From: Naegleria gruberi
Taxonomy: Eukaryota
Reading direction: 5' to 3' (one strand)
Assembly (NCBI GenBank): GCA_000004985.1
Contig: GG738864.1
Length of the DNA: 64,000 nucleotides
Positions within the stretch are counted from its first letter, which is position 1, and the number at the start of each line of letters is the position of its first letter. Positions 14,444-21,410 of the stretch are shown here, one piece after another. The notes below the pieces were generated by a model. That model was not told the origin of the DNA. It did not search any database and saw only the letters and a list, made by a program, of their open reading frames with translations. The translations under genes were made by a program, and so were the position numbers.

Positions 14444-15877
14444 ATGAAACTTATCAATTTTCTAAGTCTTCTTGATAGCTGTTGGTGCACTGTCTTCTAA
14501 CTTGGTTTCGTCACAAGAAGTTAGGGATGTTTCTTTGAAAGTATGTTAAAAATCTCTAGATTTAGTCAATTACAAGCTTTTAAGATACACTGGCTTCTCT
14601 ATCGACCTAATTCAATTTCTTGTTTCCAAAATGACAAACGTGTCCATTGAATTTTATGAAGCTCCAGATGGTACCTTTGGTAGTCCAACTGCTGCGAATG
14701 TGAATGGAAACTGGTCAGGAACCATCGGTGAAATAATATCTGGTCGTGCTGATGTCATGATTGGCCCTTTAACAATTACTCAAAGTAGACATCAAGTCAT
14801 GGATTTTACAACAAGTTTCTTTGATGTTGGACTTTCTATTCTAACTCTTAAACAAGGAGAGGAATCTAATTTATTTTCATTCTTATTACCATTCTCGTGG
14901 GAGGTTTGGATTTTGATTTTCGTGAGTGCATTAATAGTTGCCTTGCTAACATGGGTTTTTGACCATGTTTCGCCTTATGGACATTCGAAACAATCAGACG
15001 AATCAAAGAATGAATTTGATTTTAGTGGTTCGTTAATCAATGTATGACAATATCTGGTCAAGACGGAAATCCAGGTAAAAGCTGGTCAACCAGAATCATG
15101 TTGTTAGGTTATTTCCTCTTTGTCATGATTATTCTCTCAACTTATACAGCTAATTTGGCAGCCGTCCTGACAACAAAGGTTCAATCCACAAGAGTTACTG
15201 GACTATCTGATATCAGAACCTACGGATTCAAGTTTGGTGTGGCTAAAAACTCTGCTCCTGCTTCTTACATTTCCAGCAGTGAAGACATGGCAGATATCAA
15301 AAAGAATATGGTTGTATTCGATTCCCTCGATGATTGTTTACAAGCTCTGAGAGATGGAAAGGTGGATGCTTTGATTTGGGCAAGTGCCATTCTCGAATAT
15401 ATGGCCAATCAACCACCATGTGATACTTTGGTCGTTGGTGATTTGTTTAGTCCTGGAAATTATGGTTTACCTTTTGCTAAGGGAAATTGGATGATTGGTC
15501 ATTTCACTTCGGTGTTGTTGTCGATGAGAGAAAGTGGACTTGTTGAGAAACTCAAAAGGAAGTGGTGGATTGATAAGGGAAGCTGTTCATTGGTTGAATT
15601 GACACAAACAGCAACAGGTGTAAAGATTCAAGACTTGGGAGGTATCTTTTTGATTTTGGCAGGTTTTGTAGTTGTTGGTGGTGTGGTTTTGATATTCGAA
15701 TTAGTATATAGGGCTGTATATGACAAGACAAAACACAAAACTAAACATCTGAAATATCTGAATAGATTCTTGGGAGGTGAAAAGCACCTAGTTCAACGTG
15801 AGAAAGATGTACAGGAATTGAACACCACGAATATTGCAACTCCAACACTCGAAAAAGATGGGAATATGAACCAGTAA
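14444..15877 (+). pseudogene. Minimal ionotropic glutamate receptor (S1-M1-P-M3-S2-M4, no amino-terminal domain) with several reading-frame lesions; possibly a pseudogene
   Basis: Contains YTGFSIDLIQFL, GNWSGTIGEIISGRADVMIGPLTITQSR (S1), the pore/M3 STYTANLAAVLTT (the SYTANLAAF signature), S2 and M4. The frame breaks at about 15044-15047, so the track splits it into ORFs 14631-15047 and 15044-15877. An in-frame TAA lies at about 14547-14549 within a 36-nt GTATGT...AAG segment that may be a mini-intron. The signal-peptide-like start at 14444 is in yet another frame. Confidence 0.5.
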
Positions 15878-16321: not shown

Positions 16322-17278
16322 TTACACCATCAAACAGCCTTTCTTTTTTTTATGTAGAGATAATACCTCTTCCAGCACTTTTTTTGGATCATCAATACGT
16401 ACTCGAAACTTTCTAACACATTCTTCCACTAATTTATCAATATTTTCATTTGTTTTTGCACTTGTTTTCAAAATTGTACAATTAGTCAATTCAAATTCTT
16501 TTACAACTTCTTGTACCATTTCCAAATTAATTTCATACCTATCAGGGAGATCACATTTGTTCATGGCAATCATACAGGGAGCATTCTTTCCCTTCCTATC
16601 TACAAATTTACTTATCAATATTTTCAATTCTTCCAAACTTTTCTGGTCTATCATTGAGCAAACAAGAATCAAAACATCGAACATGCAATTTTTCCAATAA
16701 TAATCAGTTTCTTCCTCACTACACGTATCCAAAAAGTTTACAGTTTCCTCTTCATCATCCACAGAGATTGTTCGTTTGTACGAATCATAACCGGTAGGGT
16801 CATATTCTAGGAAGAATTGCCCATATATAAATCTTGTTATGATTGAGGATTTTCCACTGCCTCCCCTTCCAATCACTAACAGCTCAATAATTGGTGTATC
16901 AAATTTTTTTCTAAATATTTTCCCTTGTTTTTCTCTTGTTCGAATCAAATGAATAAAGTAACCTAAACTTTTAACAACTCCAATCTTGGCGAATTTATCA
17001 AAAACATGCAAAGATTCCATTTCTTTTGATTCTACTGATATCGAATACTGATCAAATATCACACCAACAAAAATCCAACAAAATTCATCAATGTATTTTG
17101 CAATAAATTTCGAATAATTTGGATGAATCAATCGGAAACTTAATACATTCGGAATGGAGTTTTTTAATTGATGGAAATATTGTTCATGCAATTTTCTTTC
17201 AGCTAACTCATAAAACGGAGACAAGTATGAAATAATTTCTGTATGAATCTCTTGGGGAAGTTGAAGAAATTTGGACAT
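16322..17278 (-). CDS. F-box-like N-terminus fused to a divergent Ras-superfamily small GTPase domain
   Basis: 318 aa, ATG start, TAA stop. N-terminus LPQEIHTEIISYLSPF is F-box-like. GTPase motifs: G1 GRGGSGKSS, G4 NKCD, G5 TSAK. Switch II reads LDTCSEEE instead of DTAGQE (Gly60 and catalytic Gln61 replaced). Confidence 0.6.
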   Translation of the reverse strand: MSKFLQLPQEIHTEIISYLSPFYELAERKLHEQYFHQLKNSIPNVLSFRLIHPNYSKFIAKYIDEFCWIFVGVIFDQYSISVESKEMESLHVFDKFAKIGVVKSLGYFIHLIRTREKQGKIFRKKFDTPIIELLVIGRGGSGKSSIITRFIYGQFFLEYDPTGYDSYKRTISVDDEEETVNFLDTCSEEETDYYWKNCMFDVLILVCSMIDQKSLEELKILISKFVDRKGKNAPCMIAMNKCDLPDRYEINLEMVQEVVKEFELTNCTILKTSAKTNENIDKLVEECVRKFRVRIDDPKKVLEEVLSLHKKKKGCLMV

Positions 17279-17393: not shown

Positions 17394-17466
17394 GCCGACA
17401 TAGCTCAGTTGGGAGAGCGTAAGACTGAAGATCTTAAGGTCCCTGGTTCGATCCCTGGTGTCGGCA
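17394..17466 (+). tRNA. tRNA-Phe (anticodon GAA)
   Basis: GCCGACATAGCTCAGTTGGGAGAGCGTAAGACTGAAGATCTTAAGGTCCCTGGTTCGATCCCTGGTGTCGGCA is near-identical to metazoan tRNA-Phe. Has a 7-bp acceptor stem, D-loop AGCTCAGTTGGGAGAGC and T-loop GGTTCGATCC. Followed by a TTTTT run at about 17470-17474. Confidence 0.9.
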
Positions 17467-17864: not shown

Positions 17865-18881
17865 TCAAATAACACCAATATCAAGTGATGTTAATTGTTT
17901 CATTTCACTTATGAATTTGGATCCTTCTACACCAATTTGATTGTAAGTAATGTCAAGTGATGTTAATTGTTTCATTTCACTTATGAATTTGGCTCCTTCT
18001 ACACCAATTTGATTGCCAGTAATATTAAGTGTTAATTGTTTCATTTCACTTATAAATTTGGATCCTTCTACACCAATTTGATTGTAACCAATATTAAGTG
18101 ATGTTAATTGTTTCATTTCACTTATATATTTGGATCCCTCTACACCAATCCCATTATAATATATATCAAGTGATGTTAATTGTTTCATTTCACTTATGTA
18201 TTTGGCTCCTTCTACACCAATTTGATTGTAACCAATATTAAGTGATGTTAATTGTTTCATTTCACTTATATATTTGGTTCCCTCTACACCAATTCCATTA
18301 TAATATATATTAAGTGATGTTAACTGTTTCATTTCACTTATGTATTTGGATCCTTCTACACCAATTTGATTGTAAGTAATGTCAAGTGATGTTAATTGTT
18401 TCATTTCACTTATGTATTTGGCTCCTTCTACACCAATTTGATTATCAGAAATATAAAGTGATGTTAATTGTTTCATTTCACTTATGAATTTAACTTTATC
18501 TGGAGAGTTACGCAACCTATAACAAAACTTAACATTTACAATACTATTCTTGAATTGGCTTTTCATAAACAATTCAATTCTATTTTCTGTAAATTGTTTT
18601 TTAAATTGAATAACAAGTCTTGAACGTTCCCGGATCACATTAAAGAATTGTTTTGAAATTAAAGAACAATTATTCAAAATAAACCACGAATCATCAATCA
18701 TGGAAATTATGTCAAAACAAACATCATCTGAAAATATATCTTGTTGGAGTTTCACAACTTTTTTTGCTTTCTCTTTCATCGAATAATTATCATTAATCAA
18801 TAGCTCCTCCGAAATTAATTGATTTGCAAAATCTTGGCTGATTCGTTTGCTCATTTTTTTATTACTAATAGTTTTCTTCAT
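17865..18881 (-). CDS. F-box-like plus leucine-rich-repeat protein with about 8 near-identical 24-aa repeats
   Basis: 338 aa. Repeats EMKQLTSL(D/N)I(T/G/Y)YNQIGVEG(A/S)KYIS. N-terminus DVCFDIISMIDDSWFILNNCSLIS is F-box-like. Stop is TGA, with an in-frame TAA about 26 codons later. Confidence 0.6.
   Translation of the reverse strand: MKKTISNKKMSKRISQDFANQLISEELLINDNYSMKEKAKKVVKLQQDIFSDDVCFDIISMIDDSWFILNNCSLISKQFFNVIRERSRLVIQFKKQFTENRIELFMKSQFKNSIVNVKFCYRLRNSPDKVKFISEMKQLTSLYISDNQIGVEGAKYISEMKQLTSLDITYNQIGVEGSKYISEMKQLTSLNIYYNGIGVEGTKYISEMKQLTSLNIGYNQIGVEGAKYISEMKQLTSLDIYYNGIGVEGSKYISEMKQLTSLNIGYNQIGVEGSKFISEMKQLTLNITGNQIGVEGAKFISEMKQLTSLDITYNQIGVEGSKFISEMKQLTSLDIGVI
17880..18480. repeat. Tandem 72-bp nucleotide repeats encoding the LRR units (8 or more copies, over 90% identical)
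   Basis: Recurring TTGTTTCATTTCACTTAT(G/A)(A/T)ATTTGG(A/C)TCC(T/C)TCTACACCAAT(T/C)(T/C)(G/C)ATT units are visible directly in the sequence. Confidence 0.6.
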
Positions 18882-19345: not shown

Positions 19346-19714
19346 TAGCCCTCACTTAATCGAATTCTTAATATAAAAACAATAATATATCAAATCCTAA
19401 GAAAATAAACTTAATTAAATTATGAAAATTACAATGTATTAATTATTTGGTCTTTTATCAAATATTGGAACTTTTCAATTTGTGGTCAGTCTAACCTTGA
19501 AGTTCGTTCATTCTGTTCCTTTTTCTTTATTATTCCAAAGAGATGGTTAATGAAAGACCAAATGAATAATATCCAAAACCCATGGCTACTCCTTCTTTGG
19601 AAACTCGTTAATCATATTTCTTTCCAAAATTATTAATTGACTGAGCAAGTACAAGTTTTGAAATCTATAAATTGTGGAAAGTAAAAAATTAAAAACAGAA
19701 TACAAAGAAAACAA

Positions 19715-20114
19715 AATGAAAAGATTTATTTCAATTCTATTAATTGCATTGACGTTAACAGTTCTTGCTCTTTCATTCACATCAGGAGTTAGTGCCACCA
19801 CTGAAGAACAAGCATCAACTCTCTCCTTGTATATTAGAAAGTATGGAAATAAGAAGAGAAATCTCAAGAAATACAGATTAAAGAAGAGAAAGAACAACAG
19901 AAAGCTCAACAAGTACATTGATACCTATGGAAGAAAGAGAAGAGGATCAAAGAGATTAGGAAAGAGGAGAATTATCAGAAAGAAGGTTGATGTTTATGGA
20001 AAGAAGAGAAGATTGAATAAGAAGAGAAGAATTGATACCTATAGAAAGAAGAATAGAAAGAATAAAAGAGGAGGAAAGAGAAATAAGAAGGTTGATATCT
20101 ATAAGCGTAAATAG
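19715..20114 (+). CDS. Small secreted polybasic repeat protein (signal peptide plus K/R-rich repeats)
   Basis: MKRFISILLIALTLTVLALSFTSGVSA signal peptide, then repeats of the type (I/V)D(T/V)YG(R/K)KRR...KKRR. The track ORF begins upstream with a non-ATG start; first ATG at about 19715. Confidence 0.4.
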
Positions 20115-20486
20115 AATTTCCTTAAATTTTGTAATTATGAGTAATAAACGTGTGATTCCATTCAATCTTGTTTAACATGAGGCCTTAGAGTCTGAAAACT
20201 TGAATAAATGTTTGGAAGTTTGAATCATGTATAAAAATTCCTTTGGAATGTTTGCACTCCTCAAGCATGGAATAACAAAGAATGTATGTCCATGCACTCT
20301 TAGTCACTCCCGACGGTCTGTCTTAGGGCGTACAAATTTTTCCTCACTAACTGCGTACTATCTCTCTATTTTTATTTAAAAGGCCATTAATCGAAAACCT
20401 CAAATGAAACCAATAACAAAAAAAACTAATCAATTGATTAACTGTTAATAATAGTCATCTATTTAGCTCAAAATATTGAAAAAATC

Positions 20487-21410
20487 ATGTCCGCCTCATC
20501 AAATTCTAATAATTATTCATCTGTTGTAATTGCAGGAGCAAGTGGTAATCTTGGTAACCAAATTGTTAAAGCTTTTCTCAATCAACCAAATGTTAGAACT
20601 CATATTCTTGTTAGAAATGAAAGCAAACACAAGGTTGAAGAATTGATCAAGTTGGGAGCTCACATTATTGAGGGAGATGTAACAACCTCAAGTGTTGAAG
20701 AGTTGGCTCAATCATTCAAAGGAATTGAAGTTATTGTTAGTGCACTTTCTGGTGATCATTCAGTTGTTTTTGATGGTCAACTGAAATTATTGAATGCTGC
20801 CAAGTTGAGTGGGGTTAAAAAGTTTGTTCCTTCAAGTTACGGTTTCAATTTCCAAGATTATTTGCAATTAGGTGATAGTTTACTCATTGATCCAAAGAAG
20901 AAATTGATTAATGATTTGCAATCTCAAAACCAAGTTGACTATCTATTGATTCACAATGGTTTATTCTATAGTTATGCTTTCTTTCCAGGTTTCCTATTCC
21001 AAAAGGAAAATGACACTATTAAATACTATGGAGATTTGAATGTCAAAATCCAATTGACTGACACTTTAGATATTGCCAAGTATGTTGTCGAAGCATCTTT
21101 GAATCCACAATTAAAGAACAAATCCATCAACGTTGCTGGTGATGAAAAGACCTTGGAAGAATTAGCTCACTTGAGTTTCCCTCAAACTCAACTCAAATTT
21201 GAAAAGTTGGGATCCGCCCAAGATTTGAAGAATCTCATCCAGAAAGAAATTCAACAAGGATTGAAACCAGAACAAATTGGTCCAATTATTTATCAACAAT
21301 TACAATGGATTGCAATTTCAGGAGTTGCACATCCACCAAAAACTGATAACGATCTCTTCAATGTTAAACCACTTTCATTGAATGATTATGTAAAAAATCA
21401 AAAACAATAA
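20487..21410 (+). CDS. NmrA-like / isoflavone-reductase-like NAD(P)-binding protein
   Basis: 307 aa. VVIAGASGNLGNQIVKAFL Rossmann motif. ATG start, TAA stop. Confidence 0.55.
   Translation: MSASSNSNNYSSVVIAGASGNLGNQIVKAFLNQPNVRTHILVRNESKHKVEELIKLGAHIIEGDVTTSSVEELAQSFKGIEVIVSALSGDHSVVFDGQLKLLNAAKLSGVKKFVPSSYGFNFQDYLQLGDSLLIDPKKKLINDLQSQNQVDYLLIHNGLFYSYAFFPGFLFQKENDTIKYYGDLNVKIQLTDTLDIAKYVVEASLNPQLKNKSINVAGDEKTLEELAHLSFPQTQLKFEKLGSAQDLKNLIQKEIQQGLKPEQIGPIIYQQLQWIAISGVAHPPKTDNDLFNVKPLSLNDYVKNQKQ

Follow-up and report, generated by a model that had tools for sequence, protein, structure and literature searches.

Does a short and extremely basic open reading frame (ORF) in the genome of Naegleria gruberi represent a genuine gene and, if so, what might its product do? 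The frame lies on the plus strand of a 64,000-nucleotide stretch of contig GG738864.1 (assembly GCA_000004985.1), hereafter called the window, which has a G+C content of about 33% and carries eukaryotic genes that are poor in introns. An initial annotation had viewed it as encoding a protein with a repetitive, polybasic tail behind a signal peptide, a product to be cut into several short amidated peptides or, as a fallback, to act as a cationic binding or antimicrobial protein. The evidence below points to a genuine gene from an undescribed family of secreted polycations, whose function we infer from sequence. Few secreted proteins carry a net charge of +43, and this family is constrained, multi-copy, and undescribed, with the present copy missing from the reference annotation. 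Its composition and conservation pattern are unusual, yet nothing in them overturns current understanding.

The open frame reported at 19674-20114 (+) does exist, but the GTG codon at 19674 with which it was said to begin is not plausible as a start, because the host is a eukaryote. That GTG lies immediately 3' of a TATA box, TATAAATT (19666..19673, +), which stands 50 nucleotides 5' of the first ATG and is kept in a DNA alignment of the window gene with three environmental relatives, designated L001, L002, and L003. The first ATG, at 19716, has a conserved context (ACAAAATGAAAAGA) and is the start shared by every homologue. Translation from this ATG gives a product of 132 amino acids, beginning MKRFISILL, from a coding sequence (19716..20114, +) of 132 codons plus a TAG stop (20112-20114) that requires no intron. 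The upstream region (19462..19715, +), which would hold the promoter and a short 5' untranslated region, has been duplicated along with the gene, as judged by blastn against L002. A candidate polyadenylation signal, AATAAA (20143..20148, +), is found 29 nucleotides past the stop codon. On the opposite strand, a Leu/Phe-rich ORF of 110 amino acids (19586-19918, -) overlaps the 5' half of the gene. It is the mere complement of a purine-rich (AAG/AGA-rich) coding strand, and the plus-strand frame is favored because of the selection and codon evidence given below.

Among 5.8 billion protein clusters, a search turned up no more than five relatives of the window protein, namely four "predicted proteins" of N. 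gruberi (NAEGRDRAFT_71365, 71069, 68008, and 68479) and one protein encoded on an environmental contig. When 1.84 billion representatives were searched exhaustively with a HMMER profile, the same family alone was recovered, plus NAEGRDRAFT_50395, and in that search the family was seen solely in N. gruberi-like sources. A search for similar cationic repeat genes, proposed earlier as a check, has thus produced five annotated N. gruberi paralogues. The homologues align with the window protein over its full length at 66-83% identity (E = 2e-58 to 4e-27), and share with it the signal peptide, an N-terminal piece containing STLS, four motifs, and a C-terminal YKRK end. The best match, P0001, has 83% identity over 100% coverage (E = 2.4e-58), and the window product itself is absent from the protein collection and the annotated set; the locus is therefore, by these comparisons, an unannotated sixth paralogue of an uncharacterised, lineage-restricted family, which thus has at least six copies. 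Across the six N. gruberi paralogues and the environmental relatives the reading frame is kept, and insertions and deletions come in multiples of three. No Pfam domain is found in any family member, apart from a NOT2/3/5 portion fused in NAEGRDRAFT_50395. A scan of JGI metagenomes with the family alignment found no relative, and a tblastn search of the window with all family members detected one copy only.

The window copy occupies a separate locus from the annotated paralogues, on another scaffold and with different neighbors. The environmental sequence L002, a near-copy of NAEGRDRAFT_71365, is matched by blastn to positions 19462-20115 of the window only, that is, to about 250 bp of upstream sequence and the coding sequence, ending at the stop codon. 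L002 is flanked by RCC1-like and TMEM120 genes, while the window copy stands instead beside leucine-rich repeat (LRR) and NmrA-like genes. Because the match is limited to the upstream and coding regions while the flanks differ, the family has apparently spread as dispersed gene-plus-promoter units.

Several existing gene models within the family deserve comment. The model for NAEGRDRAFT_50395 (P0008) joins a family member, represented by its first ~131 residues with the C-terminal motif lost, to a protein with a NOT2/3/5 C-terminal domain (Pfam E = 4e-35), and in that for NAEGRDRAFT_68479 (P0004) an unrelated N-terminus replaces the signal peptide. Both reference models look wrong. The divergent environmental sequences L001 and L003 stop at a TAG codon right after VD[FL]YKKK, while the ENA gene calls (L001 110-601, L003 127-621) run past that TAG into about 24 residues that are spurious; the probable cause is use of an alternative genetic code for the metagenome contigs.

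The gene is under purifying selection. Comparison of the window copy with L002 gives 0.38 synonymous (dS) and 0.065 non-synonymous (dN) substitutions per site, for a dN/dS ratio of 0.17. Lysine codon choice offers a second line of evidence. The coding sequence uses AAG 25 times and AAA 4 times, compared with 481:541 for a set of 22 long window ORFs (p = 3e-5, Fisher test), so that the AAG share is 86% here and 47% in neighboring ORFs; codons for Tyr, Asp, Asn, and Ile match the AT-rich background, and the longest run of A in the coding sequence is four. Poly(A) tracks stall ribosomes, and because this effect is established, the skew in lysine codons can be read as a sign that such tracks are selected against in an mRNA that is translated. 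The low dN/dS ratio and the avoidance of AAA lysine codons together make it very probable that the gene is translated. Purifying selection, selection on lysine codons, and membership in a multi-copy family all uphold the initial view that this is a genuine coding gene whose product has a signal peptide and, after it, a tail of polybasic repeats.

A further comparison, of L001 with L003, shows 14 non-synonymous differences and 1 synonymous difference, clustered at an indel in the last spacer (GKNFHKLNRKSG versus GKKHQHKNRKGG). Such differences yield no usable dN/dS ratio and are too few for positive selection to be called.

The protein begins with a region that has the features of a classical signal peptide, as first proposed. 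By inspection, residues 1-27 (MKRFISILLIALTLTVLALSFTSGVSA; 19716..19796, +) comprise an n-region, MKR, a hydrophobic core of about 17 residues (17-18), and V-S-A at positions -3 to -1. In an alignment of seven family members, SILLIALTL is invariant within the signal peptide, positions -3 and -1 read V-x-A, V-x-C, or V-x-G, and the residues that follow are always EE. Targeting of the product to the endoplasmic reticulum (ER) is strongly indicated by these sequence features. Next comes an acidic to neutral N-terminal piece, TTEEQASTLSLYIRK (residues 28-42; 19797..19841, +), with EE after the predicted cleavage site, a charge of only about -2, and the sequence S-T-L-S, invariant in 7/7 aligned members. 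The remaining 90 residues (43-132; 19842..20111, +) form a polybasic tail, predicted to be disordered, that ends VDIYKRK-stop.

The mature protein would have 105 residues, a mass of 13.07 kDa, a net charge of +43, an isoelectric point of about 12, and 17 runs of at least two basic residues. Lys and Arg make up 47% of it, and 53% of residues 42-132, so the product is strongly basic but about half, rather than "almost entirely", Lys/Arg as had been stated. The tail contains about 8% Tyr and a single Ser, and direct reading of the protein finds neither Cys nor N-glycosylation sequons, and no hydrophobic segment besides the first. Searches of Pfam and PDB sequences with the protein gave no match. 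AlphaFold2, supplied with the family alignment, returned a mean predicted local distance difference test score (pLDDT) of 59, about 50 in the tail, and a predicted template modeling score (pTM) of 0.19, with a long low-confidence helix and no fold. Neither the maximum nor the mean hydrophobic moment, at 100 and 170 degrees, rose above those of 2000 shuffles. The tail is best described, from this modeling, as an intrinsically disordered, non-amphipathic polycation; the extreme Lys/Arg density, the disorder, and the predicted secretory routing are all traits by which non-amphipathic polycationic proteins are recognized. Within the family the Lys plus Arg fraction stays at 0.47-0.53 while the number of xDxY motifs runs from 2 to 5, and some members are Lys-biased in the tail (P0005, K 37 : R 10).

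Embedded in the tail are four copies of [IVLF]DxY, all of the form [IV]D[TVI]Y, at residues 68, 91, 106, and 126. Three or more such motifs appeared in none of 200,000 shuffles that preserved the composition of the mature sequence. Motif A, IDTYG (residues 68-72; 19917..19931, +), is followed by RKRR; every N. gruberi paralogue has YIDTYG at this site. Motif B, VDVYG (residues 91-95; 19986..20000, +), has RKK before it and KKRR after it; motif C, IDTY (residues 106-109; 20031..20042, +), lies between an invariant KRR and RKK; and motif D, VDIY (residues 126-129; 20091..20102, +), is followed by KRK and the stop codon. A degenerate copy, YIRKYG (residues 39-44; 19830..19847, +), precedes them all, resembles YIDTYG, is continued by NKKR, and reads YIRKSN in paralogue P0001. 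The series of YG repeats with a period of roughly 20 residues that had been described is therefore real as regards its four motifs, but their spacings are 23, 15, and 20 residues, and Gly follows Tyr in only 2/4 of them (IDTYG-RKRR and VDVYG-KKRR; 3/5 with the degenerate copy), being absent after the Tyr of motif C (IDTY-RKK) and motif D (VDIY-KRK-stop). The pattern YG[KRN][KR] occurs three times in the protein, a number equaled by 34/200,000 shuffles. Tandem Repeats Finder detected no DNA-level tandem array in the coding sequence; the repeats are therefore old and degenerate at the DNA level.

The cores of these motifs are the most conserved elements of the tail, and their basic flanks are conserved with them. 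The upstream flanks are KK or RR, except at motif A, which has only N-K here and N/H/S-K across the family; the downstream flanks are RKRR, KKRR, RKK, and KRK. Around motif C, residues K103, R104, R105, D107, T108, Y109, K111, and K112 are invariant in all members, while the residue after the Tyr is R or G. Motifs bracketed in this way by invariant paired or quadruple basic residues do resemble prohormone convertase sites, which bears out that part of the initial annotation. Every N. gruberi copy has Gly at motifs A and B, and no member has it at motif D; at motif C it is found in divergent members and is missing from most N. gruberi copies. Every member with a known C-terminus, the divergent L001 and L003 included, ends KK-[VF]D[ILF]Y-K[RK]K-stop; the C-terminus of P0008 is lost in its fused gene model.

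To see which properties of the tail are conserved, we sorted its positions into classes and set the window protein against three close paralogues; these pairs are phylogenetically non-independent, and the p-values are therefore descriptive. Basic residues adjoining the motif cores changed in 3/51 comparisons. Those in the spacers changed in 21/81 (p = 0.005 for the difference), with 17 of the changes being exchanges of Lys and Arg, so that charge was lost in just 4/81. Over all basic positions, charge was lost in 5/132, against changes in 24/66 at non-basic spacer residues (p = 4e-9). In members without motifs A and B, the corresponding region is still rich in K, R, N, and G, and has the same Lys plus Arg fraction. 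From the conservation classes in the alignment and the paralogue comparison, three properties are under selection: positive charge along the whole tail, the exact (I/V)DxY modules with their basic flanks, and the signal peptide together with STLS.

What function would call for all three? The explanation we favor, tentatively and at somewhat less than even odds, is a secreted, disordered polycation that acts by charge and is probably cut at conserved RKRR/KKRR sites into several cationic peptides of roughly 7-49 residues, each with a Tyr module. The protein would enter the ER, lose residues 1-27, and be carried by the secretory pathway, as a ~13-kDa chain of charge +43, into the medium or food vacuoles. 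Its action there would consist mainly of multivalent electrostatic binding to polyanionic targets, the likeliest being the envelopes or nucleic acids of prey and of competing microbes, obvious candidates because the amoeba is bacterivorous. The mode of action would be akin to that of an agglutinating or killing polycation of the protamine, polylysine, or molluscidin type. The modules, [KR][KR]-(I/V)-D-x-Y-(G)-[KR][KR], would be points of sequence-specific recognition, most probably sites of endoproteolytic processing (RKRR, KKRR, KKRR), with no amidation of the resulting C-termini assumed. Lists of possible fragments were derived by hand from the positions of dibasic sites. Cutting only after the three x-K/R-R-R sites would yield pieces of 49, 23, 6, and 27 residues. 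Kex2-like cutting after every KR or RR, followed by trimming of C-terminal basic residues, would yield fragments of 2-18 residues; those of 7-18 residues, each with a Tyr, would be TTEEQASTLSLYIRKYGN, NLKKYRL, KNNRKLNKYIDTYG, IIRKKVDVYG, IDTYRKKNRKN, and NKKVDIY, and the remainder would be the dipeptides GS, LG, LN, and GG.

A polyprotein of cationic peptides accounts for all three classes of conservation, while a bulk polycation pure and simple leaves the modules unexplained, and a pure tetrapeptide precursor leaves the conservation of spacer charge unexplained. Highly cationic peptides can be taken up by microbes and protists and can kill them, and one such peptide, PR-39, enters N. gruberi itself, targets its nucleolus, and kills it (bioRxiv 10.64898/2026.08.23.746575). 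The cationic binding or antimicrobial role that the initial annotation held in reserve fits the conservation pattern better than its first choice, although classical antimicrobial peptides are amphipathic and this protein is not.

Several points weigh against a processed polycation acting by charge. The protein lacks the amphipathicity of classical pore-forming antimicrobial peptides, and has no sizeable acidic pro-piece that might neutralise a toxic polycation. A pure charge mechanism fails to explain the conservation of (I/V)DxY and of the invariant STLS, and a disordered Lys/Arg-rich chain would be very labile to proteases. Cleavage of the signal peptide was assigned by inspection alone. 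The locus tags of the paralogues are not mentioned in the searchable literature, and their identifiers are not in the supplement of a copper proteomics study of N. gruberi, an uninformative result since the identifier of a neighboring gene is absent there as well. More generally, trypsin-based proteomics is essentially blind to a sequence so rich in Lys and Arg, so absence from proteomes is uninformative. Should the family prove to be a polycationic weapon or a factor for prey handling, it would represent a new class in the amoebal antimicrobial repertoire, otherwise known mainly from the saposin-like naegleriapores.

Known systems offer partial parallels to this architecture. Protamine, histone-derived peptides, and the mollusc protein "molluscidin", with its dibasic repeats, share with the window protein extreme Lys/Arg content, recurring dibasic pairs, disorder, and absence of amphipathic structure. 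Proteins of this kind work through their charge, either at the microbial surface or once taken up. They are unrelated to the window protein in sequence; it differs from them in having conserved (I/V)DxY modules and a classical signal peptide. The diatom silaffin precursor Sil1p has a signal peptide and Lys-rich repeats of about 19 residues that contain Tyr and Gly, and is cut at RR(I/N)L; RRII, RRLN, and RRID occur in the window protein at residues 84, 98, and 104. The two are not homologous. Silaffins are Ser-rich and heavily phosphorylated, as opposed to the one Ser in the tail here, and silica-making is not known in Naegleria.

The fungal KEX2-processed repeat proteins (KEPs), which include alpha-factor, Ustilago Rep1, and the ustiloxin and phomopsin precursors, likewise combine a signal peptide with at least three short, near-identical motifs between KR, RR, or KK, in variable copy number (PMC6339444). 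The KEP definition, a secreted protein with at least three motifs interspaced by KR, RR, or KK (PMC6339444), describes the window protein, its secretion being taken from the predicted signal peptide. The published pipeline also sets a threshold of at least 15% of the protein in repeats (PMC6339444); the bare cores here (4 x 4 residues) amount to 12%, and to more than 30% when the conserved basic flanks are counted in. KEPs are fungal and not homologous to this protein, whose spacers differ in being long, polybasic, and conserved in charge. Neighbors of the ustiloxin kind, encoding UstYa- or tyrosinase-type enzymes, were not found around the window gene. A ustiloxin-like cluster for a peptide that is made by ribosomes and modified after translation (a RiPP), or another biosynthetic cluster, was considered and rejected: there are no UstYa/DUF3328, tyrosinase, or tailoring genes near the window gene or its L002 paralogue, and the two contexts share nothing. 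The amidated precursors of animals and green algae, of the pro-TRH and FMRFamide type, resemble motifs A and B in carrying X-Gly-(K/R)(K/R) behind a signal peptide (PMC10886904), but their spacers are neutral or acidic while those here are basic, with Gly at half of the motifs.

The likeness to such precursors underlies a competing explanation that we consider doubtful, in which the protein would be a multi-copy precursor of very short signaling peptides ending in Tyr. Kexin-like cutting and carboxypeptidase trimming would release peptides such as LNKYIDTY, VDVY, IDTY, and VDIY, the Gly-extended ones becoming Tyr-amides if an amidating enzyme exists. This would suit a signal peptide followed by at least four conserved cores, each bracketed by invariant basic pairs, and a C-terminus that, wherever it is known, lies exactly three basic residues past the last Tyr. 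It would also suit a Gly before the basic run that is kept at motifs A and B and, at motif C, is apparently ancestral, being present there in divergent members. A copy number of 2 to 5 among members is as in known multi-copy precursors (PMC6339444). The spacers tell against it, since they are polybasic and their charge is selected (4/81 lost), a feature that mere cleavage sites do not require and that known precursors, with their neutral or acidic spacers, do not show. Members without motifs A and B stay polybasic in that region, and charge kept both along the spacers and in motif-losing relatives is not expected if only the four-residue cores mattered. Motif A has N/H/S-K and no basic pair on its N-terminal side, Gly is never found at motif D and is missing at motif C in most N. 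gruberi copies, and no processing or modifying enzymes are encoded in the window or beside the paralogue.

Amidation itself is extremely unlikely. The pathway requires a convertase, a carboxypeptidase, and PAM in order (PMC10886904), and excavates are reported to lack PAM completely, with Trypanosoma as the example and Naegleria unnamed in that review (PMC6529398). A literature search for amidating enzymes, kexin, furin, or Kex2 in Naegleria found nothing relevant. The several short amidated peptides first proposed thus find no specific support, given Gly in 2/4 motifs, conserved spacer charge, and a group, the excavates, that is reported to be without PAM (PMC6529398). Even the broader proposition, that Discoba/Heterolobosea have in this family their first multi-copy peptide precursor of the kexin type, yielding (L/V)(N/H)KYIDTY, (I/V)DVY, IDTY, and VDIY as intercellular signals, some of them Tyr-amides or Tyr-modified, strikes us as unlikely. 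We know of no amidated peptide from any heterolobosean. Were the protein a precursor processed into several peptides, heteroloboseans would gain in it their first candidate gene for a peptide signal; the signals could serve density sensing, encystment, or the switch from amoeba to flagellate, and peptidergic signaling from repeat precursors would be pushed back to a lineage remote from animals, fungi, and green algae.

Other accounts keep the charge and change the setting. A structural or adhesive polycation in the cyst wall, the glycocalyx, or the substrate interface, with Lys and Arg binding acidic polysaccharides and Tyr cross-linked or engaged in cation-pi contacts, has models in the Lys/Tyr-rich marine adhesive proteins and in the basic tail of Giardia cyst-wall protein 2. 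A secreted, disordered, polybasic protein with conserved, regularly spaced Tyr would suit such a role, and a dispersed multi-copy family with its own promoter for each copy is consistent with a gene for a bulk product. We nevertheless hold it to be quite unlikely, as Tyr at about 8% of the tail is far under its level in adhesive proteins, Cys, Pro, and Ser-rich or Gly-rich structural repeats are absent, and the invariant basic flanks suggest recognition by an enzyme rather than bulk material. It is improbable, and would rest on analogy, that the protein is a cell-penetrating effector against other eukaryotic cells, endocytosed by competitors or prey and accumulating in the nucleus or nucleolus as arginine-rich killer peptides do. 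Its polybasic tracts resemble nuclear localization or nucleolar-targeting sequences, and the entry of PR-39 into N. gruberi, with nucleolar targeting and killing, shows the principle in the same ecological setting (bioRxiv 10.64898/2026.08.23.746575); yet such killers are usually Arg-rich while some family members, such as P0005, are Lys-biased, and the problem of self-immunity is left unaddressed. Very improbable, finally, is that there is no soluble secreted product at all, either because an uncleaved signal anchor displays the polycation on a membrane or because the frame is an unexpressed by-product of low-complexity sequence. The hydrophobic core of ~17-18 residues is rather long, and the locus is unannotated in the reference proteome. 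Against an anchor stands the small residue at -1 with V at -3, kept across divergent members; against a spurious frame, and strongly so, stand the dN/dS ratio of 0.17, the lysine codon bias, the six paralogues, and the conserved TATA box and start context.

The surroundings of the gene consist of LRR, Ras, NmrA-like, and INTS6-like genes and otherwise of housekeeping genes. Two neighboring products identify the locus in the reference assembly: the Ras-family GTPase (16325-17278) is letter-for-letter identical to N. gruberi NEG-M XP_002678008/D2VD42, and the NmrA-like product (20487-21407, +) to NAEGRDRAFT_66903/D2VD45 of the same strain, both on one 441,990-bp scaffold. The NmrA-like gene, 370 bp downstream of the polybasic gene, shares a 90%-identity cluster with a paralogue located on a 941,567-bp scaffold (NAEGRDRAFT_62363), so the polybasic gene is not alone in having undergone recent dispersed duplication. 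A tRNA-Phe(GAA) gene (17394-17466, +), found by ARAGORN and scoring 67.9 bits in Rfam, stands alone between the Ras-like GTPase and LRR genes, and is the only feature that the Rfam scan reported. The LRR_6 protein (17868-18881, -) contains about nine near-identical repeats of 24 residues (KYISEMKQLTSL[DN]I.YNQIGVEG.), which have the look of tandem units homogenised very recently; the protein collection does not contain the exact product of this ORF, and the reference gene model therefore differs. Farther upstream, an ORF at 15044-15874 (+) encodes a Lig_chan domain of the glutamate-receptor type (E = 8e-16) and is probably one exon of a larger gene.

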